This document shows, in pieces, positions 1 to 27,554 of a stretch of DNA of 27,554 nt. Position 1 is the first letter of the stretch. Every line of letters starts with the position of its first letter. Source of the DNA: Dehalococcoidia bacterium. Its GTDB lineage: Bacteria > Chloroflexota > Dehalococcoidia > GIF9 > AB-539-J10. Position numbers and translations under genes: made by a program. The notes under the pieces were generated by a model that was not told the DNA's origin, did no database searches, and saw only the letters and a list, made by a program, of their open reading frames with translations. The stretch spans positions 1-27,554 of the forward strand of contig JAGMBH010000148.1 in assembly GCA_023129815.1 (NCBI GenBank), given 5' to 3'.

Positions 1-1785
1 ATCACTACGAATTGTCGTTTGCCCTATATCTGTCAAAAGCACCCAACGAATTGCCTTGGCTCTAGTCTTCTTGTCTAGCTCCATGGCTTTGGTTACTTCA
101 GAGATTGCTTCGCGGAGTTCATCCTGGTGAGCCGAAGCTCTGAACGGAGTGAAGAGGAGATTCTTCGGGCGCTTCTCTCCCTCAGAATGACATCCTTTTC
201 TGTCATTGCGAGGAGCTTTAGCGACGAAGCAATCTCCAAAAATTCCCTCCCATCGGGTGGGTAAACCGAATTTCCGTAACAGTGATTGCTGTCGCTCAAC
301 TATATCCGAGGATAAAAGACCTAATCTCTGGCTGAGTTTAGCAGCCCCCACCATGCCAATAGCCACTGCCTCACCGTGGAGGAAACGCTTGTATTCAGTG
401 GCTGCTTCCAAGCCATGGGCAATGGTATGCCCATAGTTCAAGATGATGCGTCTTCCCCGTTCCTTCTCATCTTCACTAACAATCTGAGCCTTGATAGCAG
501 CGCTACGGATGATAGCTTGGGTAACTGCATTCGGCTCCAGCTTTATTAGTTTATCAGCATTAGCCTCCAAGAATTCAAAAAATTCTTTGTCCAGAGTCAA
601 GCCATATTTAATAACCTCAGCCCACCCCGAGATTAACTCACGGTCAGGTAAAGTATTAAGCGTGTGGACATCAGCTAAAACAAAGCTAGGCTGATAGAAA
701 GCACCGATAAGATTTTTTCCTTGAGGGTGGTTGACACCTACTTTGCCTCCGATGCTGGCATCAACCATGGCTACTAGACTGGTTGGCAGCGGTATCCAGG
801 GCATTCCTCGTAAAAAAGTGGCCGCGACAAAGCCAGCCAAGTCGCCTACCATGCCACCCCCTAAGGCAATGAGCATATCATCCCTCTCCACTCGTTGCTC
901 CACCAAGAAGTCATAAATCTTAATGGCAGAATTGATATTCTTAGTTTCTTCGCCTGGCGGCACTACCAAGGAGTTAACGGCAAAGCCAGCATCCTGTAAG
1001 ACTTTCTCAACTTTGTGTCCGTAAATGGAGAACACAGTTTCATCGCTAATTATGCTCACTACCCCAGATAAACCAATCTCTTTTATCTTTTCCCCAAGCT
1101 TTTCCAACAGACCATAGCCAACAAAAACAGGATAGCTTTGAGTAGCCGTTTTCACCCAGCAAGCAACGTCCTTATTAGCCTTTAGCTGCGAGCCTAATTT
1201 CCTCTCCCTTGACGGGAGAGGATTAAGGTGAGGGTGATGAGCGGAGCGAAGCAGTCGCCACGCCCTTATCACCTCTTCAGCCACCTGGCTAAGGCTTAAT
1301 CTATCGGTATGAATCGTCCAGTCAACGTTGGCATAGTAGGGCTGCCGGGAAGCTTTAAGCTGCCTGATGCGCTCCAGGGGATTGTTGGTAGCCAGGAGAG
1401 GGCGAACTTCAGTCCCACAGCCATAGGTAGCATTTTGGAATAAGCGTTGATAAATTGTCTCCGGTTTAGCTTCAAGACAAATGATTAAACCGCTTTGGGC
1501 AAGCAATTTATAGTTTTGAGGGTCAACGATAGCACCACCACCAATAGCTATAACTGTTTGTCTCTGCTGGCAACCTTTTCTGATTACTTCCCGCTCAAGC
1601 TCCCTGAACCGGCCCTCCCCATCTTGCTGAAAAATCTCATCAATTGATTTGCCCGCTAACTTAACTATTTCATCATCGGTATCAATGAAATTCCAATTTA
1701 GCCTCCGGGCTACTTCTTTAGCCACCAGTGATTTACCGGTGGCAGAAAAACCAGTGATAATGATGTTAGCCACTTGCCTGCTCAT
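1..1785 (-). CDS. aroK-aroB: Bifunctional shikimate kinase / 3-dehydroquinate synthase fusion; 3' end runs off the window
   Basis: Translated by hand; no stop from 1785 to 1. N-terminal Walker A GFSATGKS and IAIGGGAIV (AroK), then GGGMVGDLAGF, DASIGGKVGVN, LNYGHTIAHGLE and LHGEAVAIGM (AroB). ATGA overlap with the aroC stop. Absent from the ORF track because its stop lies outside the window. Confidence 0.95.
   Translation of the reverse strand, partial: MSRQVANIIITGFSATGKSLVAKEVARRLNWNFIDTDDEIVKLAGKSIDEIFQQDGEGRFRELEREVIRKGCQQRQTVIAIGGGAIVDPQNYKLLAQSGLIICLEAKPETIYQRLFQNATYGCGTEVRPLLATNNPLERIRQLKASRQPYYANVDWTIHTDRLSLSQVAEEVIRAWRLLRSAHHPHLNPLPSRERKLGSQLKANKDVACWVKTATQSYPVFVGYGLLEKLGEKIKEIGLSGVVSIISDETVFSIYGHKVEKVLQDAGFAVNSLVVPPGEETKNINSAIKIYDFLVEQRVERDDMLIALGGGMVGDLAGFVAATFLRGMPWIPLPTSLVAMVDASIGGKVGVNHPQGKNLIGAFYQPSFVLADVHTLNTLPDRELISGWAEVIKYGLTLDKEFFEFLEANADKLIKLEPNAVTQAIIRSAAIKAQIVSEDEKERGRRIILNYGHTIAHGLEAATEYKRFLHGEAVAIGMVGAAKLSQRLGLLSSDIVERQQSLLRKFGLPTRWEGIFGDCFVAKAPRNDRKGCHSEGEKRPKNLLFTPFRASAHQDELREAISEVTKAMELDKKTRAKAIRWVLLTDIGQTTIRSD
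101..236. repeat. Composite palindromic repeat inserted in-frame in the AroB domain
   Basis: Bounded by a perfect 12-bp inverted repeat (GAGATTGCTTCG at 101, CGAAGCAATCTC ending at 236). Contains GAGATTCTTCG..CTCAGAATGAC and GTCATTGCGAGGAGC..GACGAAGCAATCTC modules. Reads as ..GDCFVAKAPRNDRKGCHSEGEKRPKNLLFTPFRASAHQDELREAIS.. in AroB. Confidence 0.9.
1201..1256. repeat. Hairpin repeat plus partial GCGAGCGGAGCGAAGCAATC-type module in the AroK-AroB linker
   Basis: CCTCTCCC-TTGAC-GGGAGAGG perfect 8-bp stem at 1201-1221, followed by ATTAAGGTGAGGGTGA and GAGCGGAGCGAAGCAGTC, which matches the module at 2481-2510. Confidence 0.7.
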
Positions 1786-3008
1786 CTCCATAAAGAGATA
1801 TGACTTATGTAGTTATGATAATTCGCCAGGGTTTCCTTTAGGTTATCCCCGCCGAATTTCTCCAGGCAGGCATCGGCAAGAACGATAGCCAGCATTGCTT
1901 CGCCAATTACCCCCGCCGCAGGAACAATACAAATGTCACTGCGCTCATAGTGGGCTTTGGCTATCTCACCGCTGCGAAGGTCTATAGATGGCAATGGCTT
2001 AGCTAAAGTGGCAATAGGCTTGACTGCCGCCCTGACTATTATGTCTTCGCCATTGCTTATGCCACCTTCGATGCCACCGGCATAGTTGGTGGCATGGCGC
2101 CAGGGGAGCGATTGCTTCGTCGCTGACGCTCCTCGCAATGACGAGGAAGGAGAGTCCCGCGCAATGACAGATGGAGGATTGGGTTCAATAACATCATGAG
2201 CCTGCGAGCCTTTGATTTTAGCTAGAGTAAATCCAGCACCAATCTCCACTCCTTTCACGGCATTGATGCTCATTATCGCCTGGGCAATTCTGCCATCAAG
2301 GCGGCGCTCCCAGCTAACGTGGCTGCCTAAGCCAACAGGTACCCCAGTGGCGATTAGCTCAAAAACGCCTCCCAAGGTATCTCCCTCAGCTTTGGCTCTA
2401 TCAATGGCGGCTATCATTTCCTTTTCTGCCTTGGCGTCAACACAGCGGAGCAGGGAAGTCTCAACCTGCTGCCAATTTATAGAGATTGCTTCGCTCCGCT
2501 CGCAATGGCATGTCCCAATAGCTATAGTATGGCTATGAATAGCAATGCCAAATTCTTCCAGAAATCTTTTGGCGATAGCCCCGGCAGCTACCCTGACAGC
2601 AGTCTCCCGGGCGCTGGCTCTTTCCATTACAGGTCTGATGTCTTTCAGGCTATATTTAGTCACTCCAGCTAAATCAGCATGTCCCGGGCGAGGACGGGTT
2701 ACAGGCTCAGCCTCCTTCTCCACAGGAGTGATGCTCATCGCTTCCTGCCAGTTTTGCCAATCTCGGTTAGGGATAAAGAGAGCGATGGGGCTGCCCATAG
2801 TGAGTCCATAGCGAACTCCTGAGATGATTTCTACTTTGTCTTGTTCTATTTCCATGCGGGGACCACGCCCATAGCCTTGCTGGCGACGCTTGAGTTCTTT
2901 ATTGATATATTCCGCTTCCAAGGGAAGGTCGGCTACCATCCCTTCAATTATGGCTACCAATCCCTTCCCGTGGGATTCTCCAGCGGTGATAAAGCGAAAT
3001 TGTCCCAT
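1782..3008 (-). CDS. aroC: Chorismate synthase carrying two repeat-derived insertions
   Basis: TAGESHG, RRQQGYGRG, RPRPGHADL, RASARETA, GGIEGGISNG and RSDICIVPAAGVIGEAM motifs. Confidence 0.97.
   Translation of the reverse strand: MGQFRFITAGESHGKGLVAIIEGMVADLPLEAEYINKELKRRQQGYGRGPRMEIEQDKVEIISGVRYGLTMGSPIALFIPNRDWQNWQEAMSITPVEKEAEPVTRPRPGHADLAGVTKYSLKDIRPVMERASARETAVRVAAGAIAKRFLEEFGIAIHSHTIAIGTCHCERSEAISINWQQVETSLLRCVDAKAEKEMIAAIDRAKAEGDTLGGVFELIATGVPVGLGSHVSWERRLDGRIAQAIMSINAVKGVEIGAGFTLAKIKGSQAHDVIEPNPPSVIARDSPSSSLRGASATKQSLPWRHATNYAGGIEGGISNGEDIIVRAAVKPIATLAKPLPSIDLRSGEIAKAHYERSDICIVPAAGVIGEAMLAIVLADACLEKFGGDNLKETLANYHNYISHISLWR
2110..2168. repeat. Palindromic repeat module plus a partial copy, in-frame in aroC
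   Basis: GATTGCTTCGTCGCTGACGCTCCTCGCAATGAC (2110-2142), nearly the reverse complement of 202-236, followed by a second GCAATGAC. Encodes VIARDSPSSSLRGASATKQS. Confidence 0.88.
2481..2510. repeat. Minimal 30-bp repeat module in-frame in aroC
   Basis: AGAGATTGCTTCGCTCCGCTCGCAATGGCA; encodes CHCERSEAIS. Confidence 0.85.
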
Positions 3009-3026
3009 TAGCTTCCTTCACCCCTT

Positions 3027-3099
3027 GTCATTCTGAGGGAGAGAAGCGACCGAAAAATCTCCTCTTCACTCTGTTCAGAATGACATTGCTCAGAATGAC
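3027..3099. repeat. Intergenic copy of the palindromic repeat between sppA and aroC
   Basis: GTCATTCTGAGGGAGAGAAGCGACCGAAAAATCTCCTCTTCACTCTGTTCAGA is near-identical over about 50 bp to the reverse complement of the aroB insert; ends in tandem CAGAATGAC. Confidence 0.9.
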
Positions 3100-3131
3100 A
3101 AAAACCGAAGTTGCCAAACAATCTTGTCCCA

Positions 3132-4061
3132 TTAGCTTTGATGCAGATATTGAGGCTCAGGATAAGTACGGCTTAAAGTCTGCAACAGGACTATATCCTG
3201 CCCACTTAATCCCAATAATCTCATCTGGATGGCATAAACTAAGCCATCCAGATTAATTCCTAGAAGCGACTCTAATAAGGACTTACTCGGGGGTTCGTAG
3301 TACTCTATTTTTGGAGTGGTAATACCGGCTAGCTCTGCCGCCAAATCTATGGCGGTATCCAACCCACCTAGTTCGTCAACTAACCCTAACTCTTTAGCTT
3401 CAACGCCAGTGTAAAGTTGCCCCGTAGCTAAACTCCTTACCTTCTCTTTGCTCAACCCCCTACCTTCAGCCACTACCGCAACAAATTGCTCATAATAGTC
3501 ATCCACCAGTTGTTGCATGATTTCCTTTTCTTCCGGTGTTAGCTCCCTCAAACCGGCATACATATCTTTATACTTCCCACCTTTGAAGGTTTGCATCTCG
3601 ATTCCCAGTTTGTCGTAGAGTCCTTTAACATTCGGTATCTGGGAGATAACCCCGATGCTTCCTGTCAGTGTGCCTGGAAGGGCTACAATCTTGTCAGCTT
3701 CAGCCGAGATATAATAGCCTCCCGAGGCAGCCTGGCTGCCCATGCTGACCACAATAGGTTTTGTCTGCTTGACTTTTTCTATCTCCTTTAGAATTTCCTG
3801 GCAAGGCGCTACCACACCACCAGGGCTCTCTATGTGAAGAACAATCGCCCTCACGGCAATATCCTTCTCTGCCCTACCCAGTTGTTCCCGCACCAACCCA
3901 GGAGTGATAGTAGGACCAAAAAGGAGGGAACCGCCTTCAGATGTAATAGCCCCACTGAGAGTAATCACGGCAATTTTATCCCCTACCGGAATGCAGCTAG
4001 TAGGAATCAACATCGCCACTAGCAATAACATAGCCAAGCCAATGATTGTTACCTTTTTCAT
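3132..4061 (-). CDS. sppA: Signal peptide peptidase SppA (36K type, S49)
   Basis: IESPGG, SMGSQAASGGYYIS, TGSIGV, KGGKYKD and GLVDELGG motifs; N-terminal hydrophobic signal ending in PTSC (possible lipobox). Confidence 0.93.
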   Translation of the reverse strand: MKKVTIIGLAMLLLVAMLIPTSCIPVGDKIAVITLSGAITSEGGSLLFGPTITPGLVREQLGRAEKDIAVRAIVLHIESPGGVVAPCQEILKEIEKVKQTKPIVVSMGSQAASGGYYISAEADKIVALPGTLTGSIGVISQIPNVKGLYDKLGIEMQTFKGGKYKDMYAGLRELTPEEKEIMQQLVDDYYEQFVAVVAEGRGLSKEKVRSLATGQLYTGVEAKELGLVDELGGLDTAIDLAAELAGITTPKIEYYEPPSKSLLESLLGINLDGLVYAIQMRLLGLSGQDIVLLQTLSRTYPEPQYLHQS

Positions 4062-4930
4062 CTTTCTCCTCCTATTACTTCCCTCGCCCTTTTAAGCATT
4101 ATGTCAACTGGCGGTTCTCTTCCCGTCCATAATTCAAACGAGGCTGCTCCTTGATATACTAGCATAGCTAATCCGTTAAGTGTATTGGCCCCTGCCTTTT
4201 GTGCTAGCTGCAATAAAGGCGTTGGACAAGGGTTATATACTAGATCATAGACCAAGATACCTCGCGGAATCACCTCAAGACTCAAAGGTGATTTCCCCTC
4301 TTGAGGACTGTATTTCATTCCCATAGTGGTGCAGTTGACTATTAGCTCGCAGCGGCTAAAAGTTTTACCCAAATTTAGCGCTTGCCAAGGCAGAGTAGTG
4401 ACCTCGGTTTTCAGCCCAATTTCAACCATGTAGCTCTTCAGGCTGTCAGCCAATGCCCTAGCTCGCGCCGGAGTTCGATTAACAATAATGAGCGAACTTG
4501 CTTTCTCCTGCACCAAAGCAAAGCACACTGCCCTGGCAACTCCACCAGCGCCTAAGATTACCACTTGCTTACCCTGAGGCTCAAAGTGTCCCTCCTTATG
4601 CAACGCCTGGAGAAAGCCATGAGCGTCAGTATTAAAACCCAAAAGCTTATCATCTCTTCTAACGATGGTATTGACCGCGCCAATCAAATTTGCCAGGTCA
4701 TCAATCCCGTCCAACAAAGGCAAAACTGCTTCTTTATAGGGAACTGTTACATTAGCTCCCAGCTTTCGAGGCTCTCTTAATTTAGCTATTATAGCTTCAA
4801 GTTTCTGTGGGCCAGTTTCCCAGGCTTCATAGCGAATATCAAGGTGGTAGTAATCCAAAGCCGCCTGCTGGAAATATGGGGAGATGGAATGCTTTAAGGG
4901 ATAGCCGATGAGGCCGATGAACTTTGGCAT
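4058..4930 (-). CDS. aroE: Shikimate dehydrogenase
   Basis: GYPLKHSISP, GANVTVPYK, GAVNTI, NTDAHGF, GAGGVAR and GLAMLVYQGAASFELW motifs. Confidence 0.97.
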   Translation of the reverse strand: MPKFIGLIGYPLKHSISPYFQQAALDYYHLDIRYEAWETGPQKLEAIIAKLREPRKLGANVTVPYKEAVLPLLDGIDDLANLIGAVNTIVRRDDKLLGFNTDAHGFLQALHKEGHFEPQGKQVVILGAGGVARAVCFALVQEKASSLIIVNRTPARARALADSLKSYMVEIGLKTEVTTLPWQALNLGKTFSRCELIVNCTTMGMKYSPQEGKSPLSLEVIPRGILVYDLVYNPCPTPLLQLAQKAGANTLNGLAMLVYQGAASFELWTGREPPVDIMLKRAREVIGGER

Positions 4931-5601
4931 TAACTAGATTCTTCGCGGAGTTTACCCTGAGTGAGATTCTTCGGTCGCTTCTCTCCCTCAGAATGACAAG
5001 AGGCGAAGGGCTCAGAATGACAACTGTCAAGAAATCCCTGAAGAATAAAGGCAGCAGCCAAGGCATCCCGGTGTTCATTCCTTTTATTCCTCTTGGTGCC
5101 AGCCTTAACCATCAATTTCTCAACAGCTACAGTGGAGAACCTCTCATCCCATAGTTGTATGTCAACTGAGGTAAGACGAGATTGCTTCGCTGCCCCTGCG
5201 CGGAGTTCACCCTGGGCAAGATTCTTCGGCCGCTGCCCCTTCGCTTTGCTCAGGGCTTCGGCTAACCCCTCAGAATGACAATCCCCTTTTGTCACTCTGA
5301 GTCCTGACGATAGGAAGGAACTGAAGGGCTCAGGGCTTCGGCTGGCAATGCTATTTCGAAGTTTCTCGACAAAAGCAGTTACTTTATCAGCCTGCAGTCC
5401 CAAACTACCACTTAAGGAGCGAGGCAGACCAACTACGATACGTTCTATCCTATGCTGCTCCACAAGTTTGATAATATCACCTATAGTTGCCTCTTCGCTT
5501 TGGCTAACAATCGCAGTTAGAGGGACAGCCAGAAGACCTTCAGAGTCACTTATGGACACTCCTGTCCTTTTATCTCCAATATCTAATCCTAGGGTGCGCA
5601 T
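4930..5601 (-). CDS. ruvX: YqgF/RuvX family nuclease (pre-16S rRNA maturation) with a large internal insertion and a C-terminal extension
   Basis: Start set at MRTLGLDIGDKRTG (5601), just after the alaS stop. VVGLP, WDERFST and DALAAAFILQGFLD motifs are intact. 223 aa versus about 140 aa typical for the family. Confidence 0.93.
   Translation of the reverse strand: MRTLGLDIGDKRTGVSISDSEGLLAVPLTAIVSQSEEATIGDIIKLVEQHRIERIVVGLPRSLSGSLGLQADKVTAFVEKLRNSIASRSPEPFSSFLSSGLRVTKGDCHSEGLAEALSKAKGQRPKNLAQGELRAGAAKQSRLTSVDIQLWDERFSTVAVEKLMVKAGTKRNKRNEHRDALAAAFILQGFLDSCHSEPFASCHSEGEKRPKNLTQGKLREESS
4936..5022. repeat. Palindromic repeat forming the RuvX C-terminal extension
   Basis: AGATTCTTCGCGGAGTTTACCCTGAG..GAGATTCTTCGGTCGCTTCTCTCCCTCAGAATGACA..CTCAGAATGACA; encodes CHSEPFASCHSEGEKRPKNLTQGKLREES. 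Confidence 0.9.
5178..5351. repeat. Nested composite repeat of about 174 bp, in-frame inside ruvX
   Basis: GAGATTGCTTCGC, GCGGAGTTCACCCTG, AGATTCTTCGG, CCTTCGCTTTGCTCAGGGCTTCGGCT and CTCAGAATGACA modules shared with the other copies. About 58 aa between VEKLR and TSVDIQLWDER. Confidence 0.88.
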
Positions 5602-5602
5602 A

Positions 5603-8257
5603 TTAGACCTGACGAGCTCGCTTAGCTTGGCTGGCAACGATGCTTTTAACCAGATTCAAAGCTTCATCAACCTTAGCGGCGTCTTTACCGCCTGCTTGCG
5701 CCATGGTTGCTTTGCCTCCCCCACCACCACCAGTCACTTCAGCCACCTGCTTAACAATGTCACCAGCATGGAATCCTTTGGCTACTAAATCAGGAGTAAC
5801 CATAGCCAGAAAATTGGGCTTGCCATTATAAATGGTAGCTAAAACTACTATGGCACTCTTTAGTTTGTCCCGCAATATATCGCCCATCTCTCTGAGAATA
5901 GGCATAGTTAACGACGGCACCTTAGCAGACAGGATAGTTACACCATTAACCTGCTGTGTCTGCTCCAGCAGGCAATCTGCTATCCTCCGTGATAATTCCC
6001 TCTCTAATGAAAGAGAATGCTTGCGTTCTTTTTCCAGTTCACTAACAAGTGCTTTTACCTTACTGTCAACCTCTTCGGGTGAGCTCCCTGTCTCCTTGGC
6101 CACACCTTGCAAAGTAGCAAGATGCTTCTCAACCAAGGATTCAGCTCCACTCCCGGTCACCGCTTCAATGCGCCGCAGACCAGTGCCAATGCTGCTTTCG
6201 CCCGTTATAAGGAAAAAACCGATCTCCCCGGTTGATTTAACATGTGTGCCGCCGCACAGCTCCTTGCTTATTGCTGGCTCACCGACTTCAACCACTCGGA
6301 CCTGCTCCCCATATTTCTCTTCAAACAAGGCGATAGCACCTTCAGCAGTAGCTTGCTTATATGGGACGATTTTTGCCTTCACCCATAAGTTCTGGCGTAT
6401 CCTCTCATTAACCCTTCTTTCAATCTGTGTAAGTTGCTCCTCAGTTATTGCTGCTCGCCAGGAGAAGTCAAACCTGAGCCTATCTGGCTCTACTAGTGAA
6501 CCCCTCTGAGAAACGCGGTGGCTCAATATTTGCCTTAGAGCGCCTTGGAGAAGGTGGGTAGCGGTATGGTTGCGAGCAACATCCAGACGACGGGCTATAT
6601 CCACTCTAGCTTCTACCTCGTCACCAACAGAAATCTCGCCTTCTATTACTTTTCCTGAACTGATATCAGGCCCAAAAGTATCAGTTACAATAACTTTACC
6701 GCGATCGCTGATTATCCTACCAGTGTCACCAACTTGCCCACCCATCTCAGCATAAAAAGGCGTTTCAGAAAGAAGGATTATTAACTCCTGCCCTTGTTTC
6801 GCTCGATCAACAAGATTGCGGTTGATGAGCAGGGCTTTTATTTCACTCCTACACGTCAATGTTTCATAACCAACAAATTTAGCTCCAGGCAGTTCAGCTA
6901 ATTTCTCAGGCCTTTGTACTCCCTTTTCAGTAATTAGGACTTTATCAATAGCTATTGCTCCTCCGGCCGCCCTGGCTCTCTCCCGCTGTTTTTCCATCTC
7001 AGCCTGGAAACCCTCCCAATCTATGGAAAGCTCCTTTTCTTTAGCAATCTCTGCGGTTAATTCCTGTGGAAAACCAAAGGTGTCGTGAAGTTTGAATACT
7101 TCTTCCCCCTGTAGCCATTCTCTTCCTTGTTCCAAAGCTTCATTGATTAGTCTTTCCACTAGATTAAGCCCGCTGTCTAGGGTATTGATGAACCTCTCCT
7201 CTTCCGCCTTGGTTACCTCTTTAATCAAGTCTCGGTTGCTTACCAGTTCAGGATATATATCACCCATTTGAGAAATGACTACCTCAGCAATTTGACTAAG
7301 GAAAGGCTTATCTAAACCCAGCCTTCTAGCAAAAAGAGAGGCGCGACGCAACACTCGCCGTAAAACATAGCCTCTACCTTCATTGGAGGGCAAAACACCG
7401 TCAGCAATGAGAAAGGGAATACCACGACCATGCTCAGCAATAATTCTAATAGCTCGGTCATCACTATCACTCTTACCACAACATTTGCCTGTTAATCGGC
7501 AAATCCTTTGAATGAGGGGTAAGAAAAGATCTGTCTCATAGACTGAATATTTGCCTTGCATAACCACTGCAGTCCTTTCCAAACCCATTCCAGTATCAAT
7601 ATTCGGTTTAGGCAGAGGAGTACGCTTACCATCAGGACTCTGGTCATATTGAGTAAATACCAGATTCCAGATTTCAGAGAAGCGACCACAGTCACAATTA
7701 GGTTTACATTCCGGCCTACCACAACCAGCCTCCACTCCTAAATCGTAATGGATTTCGCTGCATGGCCCGCAAGGCCCCGAATCACCGGCCGGACCCCAGA
7801 AATTATCCTCCTCCCCAAAGCGCAATATTTTCTCAGCCGGAATTCCTACTTTCCGCCAATAGTTAAAAGCTTCATCATCGTCAAGGTAAACAGTTGCCCA
7901 TAGCCGCTCTTTCGGTAATTTTAAGTACTCAGTAACAAATTCCCAAGCCCAAGCAATGGCCTCTCTTTTGAAATAGTCACCAATACTGAAATTCCCCAGC
8001 ATCTCGAAGAAAGTAAGATGTTTGGTATCGCCAACAGAAGCTATATCAGTATTACGGAAACATTTTTGGCAAGAAACCAGCCGTGGACTGGGAGGCTTCT
8101 CCAATCCCAAAAAGTAAGGCTTAAATTGCGCCATGCCAGCAGTAGTCAATAATAGGGTAGGATCTCCACGAGGAATCAAGGATGAACCAGGGATGATCTT
8201 ATGACCCCTATCTTCGAAGAACCTCAGAAAAAACTGCCTAAGTTCATCACCAGTCAT
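5603..8257 (-). CDS. alaS: Alanine--tRNA ligase
   Basis: TTAGMAQFKP, HLTFFEMLGNFS, IDTGMGLER, editing motifs HTATHLL and ELCGGTH, C-terminal GGGGGK..MAQAGG. Confidence 0.99.
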   Translation of the reverse strand: MTGDELRQFFLRFFEDRGHKIIPGSSLIPRGDPTLLLTTAGMAQFKPYFLGLEKPPSPRLVSCQKCFRNTDIASVGDTKHLTFFEMLGNFSIGDYFKREAIAWAWEFVTEYLKLPKERLWATVYLDDDEAFNYWRKVGIPAEKILRFGEEDNFWGPAGDSGPCGPCSEIHYDLGVEAGCGRPECKPNCDCGRFSEIWNLVFTQYDQSPDGKRTPLPKPNIDTGMGLERTAVVMQGKYSVYETDLFLPLIQRICRLTGKCCGKSDSDDRAIRIIAEHGRGIPFLIADGVLPSNEGRGYVLRRVLRRASLFARRLGLDKPFLSQIAEVVISQMGDIYPELVSNRDLIKEVTKAEEERFINTLDSGLNLVERLINEALEQGREWLQGEEVFKLHDTFGFPQELTAEIAKEKELSIDWEGFQAEMEKQRERARAAGGAIAIDKVLITEKGVQRPEKLAELPGAKFVGYETLTCRSEIKALLINRNLVDRAKQGQELIILLSETPFYAEMGGQVGDTGRIISDRGKVIVTDTFGPDISSGKVIEGEISVGDEVEARVDIARRLDVARNHTATHLLQGALRQILSHRVSQRGSLVEPDRLRFDFSWRAAITEEQLTQIERRVNERIRQNLWVKAKIVPYKQATAEGAIALFEEKYGEQVRVVEVGEPAISKELCGGTHVKSTGEIGFFLITGESSIGTGLRRIEAVTGSGAESLVEKHLATLQGVAKETGSSPEEVDSKVKALVSELEKERKHSLSLERELSRRIADCLLEQTQQVNGVTILSAKVPSLTMPILREMGDILRDKLKSAIVVLATIYNGKPNFLAMVTPDLVAKGFHAGDIVKQVAEVTGGGGGGKATMAQAGGKDAAKVDEALNLVKSIVASQAKRARQV

Positions 8258-25725: not shown

Positions 25726-27554
25726 CTAAAGTTTAAGCTTTAAGGTTACTATCTCAAAGGGCTTAACTTCTAACCGCAACTTATTACCATCTGCCTTGAG
25801 CTCATATAGCTCCCGCTCGAGCAAGTCGACAACCGCAGCCCGCTTAATCATCCTAAATAGCTCAAGCTCGGCCACAGTAGCTTCTCCGATCGTTTCAAAG
25901 AACCTTAAGACTACTTCATCACTATCCTCAGCCTTTTTAAGCGCTGAGAGGATAAGGTTATCGGGGGAAAGTTTTAAGAAGGAGAATTCTTCCGGGAGTT
26001 CTCCTTGGGAGTTTGTTTGAATACAATAGGGCAGGTGGTGGAAATCCTGAGCTTGCTTATACATTTTAGCTTGCCTCCAATCACCCTCATGAGGCTGAAG
26101 GGCATATTCAAAGAGGTAAGGTCTAAGCTCTAGGGCATCCGGGGTAGGAACTAGGGGGCCAGCTATTCCATCAGCGGAAAGCCCATAGACACTTCTCAAA
26201 AGCCTGATGAAGACGGCGCCTTTCATTATCATAGCTGCCGGCAACCCTTTGTTCATAAAGGTTATCCCTCTTATTCCATTGCTCAGGTCAAACCAGCTGA
26301 GGAAATTAGGTATTCCTGAAGGCTTAAATCCTTCTTCCCTGCTGGTGAAGTATTCTGTAGGCTCAGGAACAACCCCAAATTGTGTCTCCCGGAAATAGAC
26401 CTTCCTCTCCATCCCCGTATCAAACTTAACACTGAGCCTTATGTTAGGATATTTATTCTCAATCTTAGTGATGAACTCAATTCGGGGGAGGTCTCGGAAA
26501 ACTATAACCTCTTTATGGATATCCAGCGTTTTATATTTATAAAGCATGGGGGGAAACCTTTCCTTTAACCTATAAGGCCAAGTGAGGCAATAATACTCAT
26601 CCTCGAAAATTATCTTCGCCTGCAAAACTCCCTTCTCTATCCTGAAGTTCTTGGGTTTAAAACTTCCGTATTTAAGCCCCTCTCCAGATTCGCTCTTTAT
26701 AAGATCAGCAAATCTAGAGCGGTGATAGTAAAGGTCACCTATCTCATCATCGATAAAGATTTCATTTCCCCTAACCAAAAGTTCGCCTTCTTTATCTGAG
26801 ACCTCGATTATGCCGGTCTCCTTATTCACAGCCACTTTATAGAACGGAGTTTCTACGATTTCCCCTTCAACCTTTATCCCACCTTCGGCTTGCCATGCCT
26901 TCGGCTCACAATGACACGGGGGCGGGGTTAGTTTATACATCTTGTAACCCAAAGGTGGGAGGTCACAGGTAAAGCCTATTTTTGCTCCTTCAATCTTATC
27001 TTCTTCACTTTTCCCTATCTCTATAACCTCACTCTCTACCTCTTTTTTTTCCTTTATCCCCGGGACACCCTCATATCCTTGGGGCAATTTTAGCTCAGCT
27101 TCACCCCAATTCCGCATTCTCCAGGGCAAGGGATTGAATGCCAAGAGCGCTTCACCACCAGTGCCAACCTTTCCGGCGATATAAGACAAGGATTGATTTA
27201 AGCTATGGGTAAGTTTTGCTTTAAGGGAGGAGCAAATCTCTTTTACCTCTTCATAAATCTCATCCACCCCACAGCCAGTGACGATGTCATGGAAAGCGAT
27301 AAAAAGGATATTTTCCCAGGCCTCATGCAGTTCAGAAGTGGGATAGTCAGCGCCGAGCAGCCAAGCGATGGTAGCAAATTCCTCTGCAGCCATAAGTAAG
27401 CCTTCGCATTCCCTAGAGCTTTGCACTATCCATAGTCGGCTGGTGCAAACCTGTGGAAATACATCTACAAGCTCATTGTCATATAGTTCCCCTTCCACAA
27501 CCTCGAACTTCTTTTTAGTCTGCTCCAGCGCCTGGAAAAATTCCTTGGGGGTGA
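25726..27554 (-). CDS. GH38 alpha-mannosidase; 5' part lies beyond the window
   Basis: Frame stays open to the window edge (TPKEFFQALEQTKKKFEVVEGELY). AFHDIVTGCG, FNPLPW, ETQFG, NKGLPA and SALKKAED..VVLRFFE. Confidence 0.92.
   Translation of the reverse strand, partial: TPKEFFQALEQTKKKFEVVEGELYDNELVDVFPQVCTSRLWIVQSSRECEGLLMAAEEFATIAWLLGADYPTSELHEAWENILFIAFHDIVTGCGVDEIYEEVKEICSSLKAKLTHSLNQSLSYIAGKVGTGGEALLAFNPLPWRMRNWGEAELKLPQGYEGVPGIKEKKEVESEVIEIGKSEEDKIEGAKIGFTCDLPPLGYKMYKLTPPPCHCEPKAWQAEGGIKVEGEIVETPFYKVAVNKETGIIEVSDKEGELLVRGNEIFIDDEIGDLYYHRSRFADLIKSESGEGLKYGSFKPKNFRIEKGVLQAKIIFEDEYYCLTWPYRLKERFPPMLYKYKTLDIHKEVIVFRDLPRIEFITKIENKYPNIRLSVKFDTGMERKVYFRETQFGVVPEPTEYFTSREEGFKPSGIPNFLSWFDLSNGIRGITFMNKGLPAAMIMKGAVFIRLLRSVYGLSADGIAGPLVPTPDALELRPYLFEYALQPHEGDWRQAKMYKQAQDFHHLPYCIQTNSQGELPEEFSFLKLSPDNLILSALKKAEDSDEVVLRFFETIGEATVAELELFRMIKRAAVVDLLERELYELKADGNKLRLEVKPFEIVTLKLKL
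26891..26916. repeat. Degenerate repeat module inside the GH38 gene
   Basis: Minus strand TGTCATTGTGAGCCGAAGGCATGGCA, encoding CHCEPKAW; shares the TGTCATTG-GAG start with the copies at 201 and 2481-2510. Confidence 0.5.

Follow-up and report, generated by a model that had tools for sequence, protein, structure and literature searches.

What are the additional stretches found inside essential enzymes of uncultured Chloroflexota, and how did they get there? The question is raised by the window analysed here—the whole stretch of 27,554 nucleotides, i.e. contig JAGMBH010000148.1 (C55) of the assembly GCA_023129815.1 from a Dehalococcoidia bacterium—which presents seven sites with short palindromic repeats within positions 101–5351, six of them in frame inside the genes encoding the AroK-AroB fusion, AroC and RuvX. 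We consider it rather probable that a non-autonomous DNA hairpin repeat dispersed over the whole genome gave rise to these sites, joined by one copy of a second family. An earlier note on the same DNA had located the seven sites, placed six of them in coding sequences and quoted the peptides they encode, all of which is correct, the peptide CHSEGEKRPKNL being common to the AroB and RuvX inserts and the peptides CHCERSEAIS and VIAR..ATKQS both being located in AroC. Its view that all seven copies are related stands for the six sites of the main family, but not for the copy in the AroK-AroB linker, the main part of which belongs to another family (family ii) that flanks DUF559 genes.

The repeat unit and its copies in the genome

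The source bin (G000; 1.16 Mb in 176 contigs, 82% complete) contains the head words of the main family, GTCATTGCGAG and GTCATTCTGAG, 79 and 97 times, respectively, with less than one occurrence expected. Read by eye, the unit—25–33 nt long—is built, in this order, from a head reading (T/C)GTC, an arm of 5 bp (ATTGC, ATTCT or, in a third variant, CCCT), GA, a small hairpin closed by GC, again GA, the matching arm and a CTC tail, the inner hairpin often being GCGAAGC and sometimes containing an extra GG/CC step; composites of ~90 nt also recur on other contigs, with 90–93% identity. The stem comprises five Watson-Crick pairs, tandem G.A and then two to four further pairs, the loop having mostly 3 nt; both the tandem G.A pairs and d(GCGAAGC) are known for their stability. 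The arms covary, since in the genome the heads in TGC pair with the tails GAAGCAAT (49:3) and those in TCT with the GAAGAAT tails (76:2), the corresponding ratios for 168 copies from other taxa being 101:0 and 62:0. The inner segments contain 1.3–1.7 nested pairs as compared with 0.35–0.40 in shuffles, and the other taxa exhibit 95 distinct inner sequences, many of them with compensatory changes.

Concerning the location in the genome, evaluated with our own gene calls based on open reading frames (ORFs; 1194 genes), the 91 complete simple hairpins are mostly intergenic (56), with 30 being intragenic and five situated at gene edges, which is a strong intergenic excess for a genome that is 85% coding (P = 1e-24). 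The intergenic copies are unbiased with respect to the upstream gene (19 in the same and 15 in the opposite orientation); the intragenic ones are represented by 25 sense vs five antisense copies (P = 3e-4), and of the 11 B-type copies in the sense orientation, ten use the CHSE... frame and one uses the other open frame. This pattern of orientation and frame fits what is expected if selection on the translated peptide acts on a DNA element that itself is unoriented. All 20 host ORFs that were tested proved to be conserved housekeeping genes, among them those for adenine deaminase, TilS, PurH, Mfd, PGI, aminotransferases, SecA and CarA, as well as PolA, a MiaB-like enzyme, HypD, RNase J, DapF, L13 and IspD. 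This genome yielded no case of a gene being split by a repeat; the possibility that the intergenic copies mark genes broken out of frame was rejected because the two tightest candidates are flanked by distinct genes.

Within the window, the frames are open at all intragenic sites of the AroK-AroB fusion, AroC and RuvX, as had been claimed, and Pfam domains were detected in all three host proteins: a full-length Chorismate_synt match in AroC, SKI together with both DHQ synthase domains in the fusion protein, and RuvX matched as two stretches with the insert between them. The high local density reported earlier was also borne out, with nine head words in 1–5351 vs 0.89 expected (P = 4e-7); local copying as its source was rejected, the best matches of most sites being on other contigs.

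Based on the above results, the following course of events is proposed. The repeat would spread as DNA, presumably by transposition-like copying carried out by an enzyme other than the resident RAYT—the tyrosine transposase associated with repetitive extragenic palindromic (REP) sequences—and would land or be copied for the most part in intergenic DNA, frequently at or within copies already resident. Of the copies within genes, those that survive would be the ones that do not disturb the frame, usually sense-oriented and read in a hydrophilic frame, and they would lie in length-tolerant surface loops, linkers and C-termini, where they may be translated as disordered peptide.

The individual sites are listed in Table 1. 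In the region 1–8257 every gene lies on the minus strand, the gene content being the AroK-AroB fusion—incomplete, as it continues past the contig end—AroC, an S49 peptidase, AroE, RuvX and AlaS. The unit of 92 nt at 101–192 in AroB recurs on contig C174 with 92% identity, the other copies of the linker insert in the genome are 92–100% identical to it, and 54 nt of the copy in the aroC/S49-peptidase spacer represent an inverted match of 139–192 (94%). The composite in the RuvX tail leaves the frame open up to the TAATG overlap with aroE and has six further copies in the genome (91–93% identity over 74–89 nt), while the mosaic inside RuvX includes a type-C hairpin within the loop of a B-type hairpin and has an A-type tail at its end. 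An eighth, degenerate copy is positioned outside the region 101–5351.

Table 1 Positions of the repeat sites and their modules in the window (nt, nucleotides; aa, amino acid residues)
Feature	Position	Strand or orientation	Description
AroB C-terminal domain composite	101–236	-	residues ~518–562 of the fusion, 45 aa
AroB composite, tail module	101–158		ends in CGAAGCAATCTC
AroB composite, B-type hairpin	159–191	sense
AroB composite, A-type hairpin	202–234	antisense
AroK-AroB linker insert	1187–1256	-	family-ii element and truncated A-type piece
Linker, family-ii hairpin	1201–1221		CCTCTCCC/GGGAGAGG, plus GGTGAGGGTGA
Linker, truncated A-type piece	1238–1256	+, antisense
AroC site 2	2108–2170	-	read as SVIARDSPSSSLRGASATKQS; ~16 aa beyond most orthologs
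AroC site 2, complete A-type hairpin	2110–2142
AroC site 2, additional degenerate head	2158–2168
AroC site 1	2482–2509	-	short A-type hairpin, degenerate head (GCCATTGCGAG), read as CHCERSEAIS
aroC/S49-peptidase spacer copy	3026–3099	+	B-type hairpin, degenerate tail, then two reversed half heads
RuvX C-terminal tail	4936–5024	-	residues 195–223, 29 aa; 89-nt composite
RuvX tail, B-type hairpin	4965–4997		preceded by a half head, followed by CTCAGGGTAAACTCCGCGAAGAATCT tail
RuvX internal insert	5180–5351	-	residues ~83–138, 56 aa; mosaic
Eighth, degenerate copy	26875–26915	-	GTCATTGTGAG, then CCGAAGG; in frame in a GH38 alpha-mannosidase-like gene

Turnover of the inserts among related genomes

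The comparison with orthologs upholds the idea that a repeat resembling the Rickettsia palindromic elements (RPEs) resides in frame in housekeeping genes, the orthologs of relatives either lacking the inserts or carrying different ones. Extra residues were confirmed in AroB, in RuvX and at AroC site 2, but at AroC site 1 the net gain is merely ~2 aa. A DNA alignment of four genomes of the same genus—G000 (the window's genome), G001, G003 and G004—revealed that all the sites are polymorphic. In AroB, the 45-aa composite is missing from the three others: G003 and G001 have an empty site reading LPVSFSGLSLAEVV, and G004 has only a short A-type copy; beyond these, the same loop in G010, G013 and G015 contains copies in other frames. 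The AroK-AroB linker of G004 and G001 possesses antisense B-type modules instead. Both AroC sites vary among the four genomes, site 1 having 10 residues more in G003 and a 78-nt nested expansion in G004, and the aroC/S49-peptidase spacer holds a family-ii element in G003 and nothing in G004. One site can thus hold different repeat families in sister species, and the loops of AroB, RuvX and the linker are occupied, in different frames, in other genera as well, i.e. the same loops have been occupied repeatedly.

With regard to RuvX, its length is 209–223 aa in G000, G003 and G004 and 137–168 aa in relatives, in which the C-terminus consists of FILQGFLDS plus a few residues. The two inserts at their full size (56 and 29 aa) are missing in G001 and in all more distant relatives, the internal loop of G001 having only an A-like hairpin of 26 nt. 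The corresponding 9-aa peptide (SLRAKRSNL-like) is present in this loop in most genomes of the family and not in the order-level outgroups; judged from this distribution, it is an old resident that was expanded later. The 27-nt type-C hairpin inside the B-type loop is present in G000 and G004, and not in G003. The sister genomes show that new modules have been placed between the head and the tail of older copies, in accordance with the nested re-insertion suggested by the earlier note.

It should be pointed out that several observations weigh against reading the sites as copies of a spreading hairpin repeat. No target-site duplication and no clean filled/empty junction was seen at the few junctions that could be examined, and the inserts often replace a few native codons, which fits gene conversion equally well as transposition. 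No mobilising enzyme for the main family was found in the genome. The nearest-neighbour fold energies (DNA and RNA, single units and composites) are no better than those of shuffles (z from -0.5 to +0.9), so that the hairpin claim is founded on covariation, not on computed energy. The AroB composite is bridged by no independent contig, its internal order having no outside support, and the translation of the inserts is deduced from the DNA.

Gene conversion or template switching at long-occupied sites, with the shared head and tail providing the homology and without any insertion by a transposase, is a possible, albeit doubtful, explanation of the same data. It would account for sister species carrying different members at one site, for expansions located exactly between the conserved head and tail, for native codons being replaced instead of cleanly interrupted, for the main repeat family having no linked transposase and for an A-type copy occupying the RuvX loop in most genomes of the taxonomic family. 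On the other hand, the AroB site being empty in G003 and G001, together with the different frames in other genera, means that new arrivals at naive sites do occur; moreover, the arms of 10–11 nt are short for homologous recombination and the patchy cross-phylum spread requires a route into new genomes.

The same alignment contains some further differences. The aroE gene of G003 and G004 (opposite position ~4420 of the window) has an antisense B-type-like hairpin that adds 15 nt in frame and that is not present in G000 and G001. The spacer between aroC and aroK-aroB in G001 exhibits ~560 extra bases (alignment columns 4031–4616), with a small ORF that is a candidate for a HicB-type antitoxin-like protein.

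Host proteins, selection and assembly

In the AlphaFold2 model of RuvX (based on 16 sequences), the core has a predicted local distance difference test (pLDDT) score of 80–90, the residues 92–141 and 198–223 being below 50; the inserts are thus predicted to form a disordered loop and tail around an intact core. In alignments to known structures, the internal insert of RuvX corresponds to a 3-residue gap in YrrK from B. subtilis (1VHX) and AroC site 2 to a gap in AroC from Aquifex (1Q1L), in comparison with which the loop at AroC site 1 is variable in length. An example of a peptide predicted from the DNA to span an insert junction is ...GCHSEGEKRPKNL... The statement that the repeat is "building new protein sequence" holds as far as extra residues are concerned, but these are confined to loops and tails predicted to be disordered. 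The identity in the aligned repeat columns is 0.91, 0.87 and 0.70 vs 0.93, 0.91 and 0.88 in the flanks, the repeat columns changing at approximately the rate of third codon positions; selection preserving the inserted DNA was rejected, since the repeat columns are no better conserved than the flanks. Nothing points to a gain of function or to new biology in the host enzymes.

It is quite improbable that the intragenic copies have been retained for a function, whether as mRNA or DNA structures pacing translation or transcription or as a Cys/His peptide. Such a role would be in line with the strong intragenic preferences for orientation and frame, with the outer arms conserved across phyla and with the long retention of the A-type peptide in the RuvX loop; most copies, however, are intergenic and unoriented, their content turns over within one genus, the inserts show the lack of extra conservation and the predicted disorder described above together with unremarkable fold energies, and the orthologs work without them.

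The sequence of the window is present in metagenomes from cold seeps and marine sediments. Concerning the assembly, the Logan contigs of source-like runs end at repeats, where the word depth reaches thousands, so that the public runs confirm it only in part, and the repeats are probably responsible for much of the fragmentation of the G000 bin and its relatives. That the inserts are artefacts, i.e. repeats collapsed or misjoined in a fragmented metagenome bin, would be compatible with the number of contigs, with the Logan contigs breaking at every repeat and with the AroB composite being unique to G000 and positioned 100 nt from the contig end. Nevertheless, we hold this explanation to be very unlikely: on both sides of each insert, the flanking sequence is collinear with that of the orthologous genes, the frames are open throughout, the separately assembled G003 and G004 also contain the RuvX inserts and AroC site 2 (95–97% protein identity), and AroC site 1 is spanned without differences by one contig (X1 record 4). 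One run has a joint skipping 114–259, which looks like an empty-site allele. As a separate observation, many G000 contigs stop within ~1 kb of a repeat copy.

Known repeat systems, candidate mobilisers and spread among taxa

Rfam, searched with the entire window (E up to 1), contained nothing that matched, and full-text searches of the literature with the DNA words and the encoded peptides retrieved nothing relevant. REPs residing in frame within genes are already known, the present one being a further such repeat family. The closest description concerns the CGTC-tagged REPs, which include dRS3 from Neisseria and RPE-4 and RPE-6 from Rickettsia; according to that publication (Di Nocera, De Gregorio and Rocco 2013; PMC3733652), they are defined by an unpaired CGTC head (often TGTC or CCTC), a stem of 8–9 bp opening with A.T pairs, a loop of 4–5 nt and a short unpaired tail with the consensus CCA, and they form mostly head-to-head dimers. 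They are also presented as having no known dedicated transposase and as occurring inside ORFs singly, in groups or two per gene, often in DNA repair genes, the CGTC-1 repeats of Bradyrhizobium having variable loops (PMC3733652).

The main family shares with them the base preceding GTC (in G000, T in 75 and C in seven of the 84 copies; among the 168 copies from other taxa, C in 77 and T in 80), the A.T opening of the stem given by the arms ATTGC/GCAAT and ATTCT/AGAAT, the lack of a dedicated transposase and the occurrence in Bradyrhizobium, which the present pattern matches, too. It differs in its imperfect stem with G.A and a 3-nt loop, no perfect-stem GTCA hairpin of the main family having been found in G000, and in the rarity of dimers there (four neighbour pairs within 60 nt among the 84 copies). 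The tail is CTC in G000, with TC following AATC in 60 of 84 copies, and the copies from Bradyrhizobium, Solimonas and other Proteobacteria end with AATC-CAG. Because the stem, the loop and, in G000, the CTC tail are unlike the description, the family has been filed as a CGTC-like relative; it resembles the CGTC REPs by its head tag, without being a proven member.

The RPEs (Ogata et al. 2000, 2002), according to the summary in PMC10969869, are palindromic repeats inserted in frame into unrelated housekeeping genes, giving family-specific peptides at positions compatible with the fold, the classic RPE-1 type having ~150 bp and being restricted to Rickettsia. On that account, the main family is similar to them by its in-frame residence in functional housekeeping ORFs; it is different, however, by its units of 25–33 nt or composites of ~90 nt, by its occurrence in many phyla and by its host, a free-living sediment bacterium of another phylum. 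A MITE (miniature inverted-repeat transposable element) is another case to be considered: QMITE1 of Coxiella burnetii is reportedly an in-frame MITE, i.e. a non-autonomous repeat making in-frame fusions with host ORFs. The terminal inverted repeats of the insertion-sequence type and the target-site duplication of MITEs were not seen here, at the few junctions open to examination; the filled and empty AroB sites show no duplication, native bases being replaced.

As for the mobilising enzymes, the earlier note had proposed to look for an associated nuclease or transposase, and none linked to the main family was found in this genome. The main part of the linker element belongs to family ii (CCTCTCCC-N5-GGGAGAGG plus GGTGAGGGTGA), which folds well as DNA (z = -3.6) and has 27 copies, nine of them intragenic, in addition to 10 copies of a variant. 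Both genes for DUF559, a Vsr-like endonuclease (C139:3339–3665 and C11:613–933), are bracketed by family-ii hairpins, their flanks also holding CTCCCTCCC-N-GGGAGGGAG, and DUF559 was therefore rejected as the mobiliser of the main family. The sole Y1_Tnp (RAYT-like) gene (C114:7080–7373; on the minus strand in L024:1405–1800) is flanked on both sides by a third family, the GTAG-tagged REPs, with stems like CGAGGC..GCCTCG and GTGGGGC..GCCCCAC, all 28 copies of which are intergenic, unlike those of the other two families; the RAYT was rejected as the mobiliser on account of these flanks. The only GIY-YIG hit lies in an ORF of 609 aa, which we take to be UvrC, and this candidate was rejected as well. 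No ORF carried between inverted GTCATT copies was found in the genome, just three ordinary genes with copies in the same orientation.

The main family does recall the REPs and their paired form, the REPINs, mobilised by RAYTs, in having short, mostly extragenic hairpins in tens to hundreds of copies with a patchy occurrence. That its hairpins are REPINs moved by the RAYT of the genome is nonetheless hardly credible in spite of that one Y1_Tnp gene and of the many inverted doublets in other taxa, since the family has neither the GTAG head nor a RAYT flanked by its own copies, close pairs are few in G000, and of the 14 genomes of the class that are rich in the hairpin, 9 are without a Y1_Tnp hit, G075 (89 copies, 100% complete) and the near-complete G009 (78 copies) among them.

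The repeat is not particular to the host lineage, as had been supposed, the pattern having been detected in 75 of the 301 genomes sampled within the phylum, and outside it in many further phyla. Its occurrence is patchy, given that of three other genomes belonging to the host's own family one has 78 copies and two have none, with as many as 451 elsewhere; the reversed control pattern was almost never found. A scan of all species genomes with the exact pattern gave, among the matches listed, Bradyrhizobium, Pedobacter, Flavobacterium and Nitrospirae, as well as Acidobacteria, Patescibacteria, Cyanobacteria, Omnitrophota and others. The loci from other taxa frequently show inverted doublets. In one metagenome-assembled genome of Patescibacteria (L092:3691–5265), an O-antigen-ligase-like ORF continues through an inverted hairpin doublet at its C-terminus (...SLRGSLATKQS...IASLPSVARNDRQF), i.e. 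the same behaviour in a distant phylum.

A tentative extension of the reading as a spreading hairpin repeat, which may well turn out otherwise, is that the GTCATTSYGAG...CGAAG(C)AATC hairpin constitutes a single mobile DNA family that spreads horizontally throughout the bacteria and belongs to the CGTC REPs as a branch with G.A mismatches in the stem, moved by a non-RAYT activity that would recognise folded single-stranded DNA by the conserved head and tail and would prefer resident hairpins as targets. If this were true, both the nesting and the repeated hits in the same loops across lineages would be explained. The conservation of arms of 10–11 nt across phyla without a linked transposase renews the question, raised with the CGTC REPs in 2013, of what moves such repeats. 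For the organisms themselves, the repeats account for the unusual low-complexity stretches inserted into essential enzymes of uncultured Chloroflexota, and the four genomes of one genus, polymorphic at every site, offer a compact set on the arrival of such elements, on their nesting and on their tolerance in protein loops.

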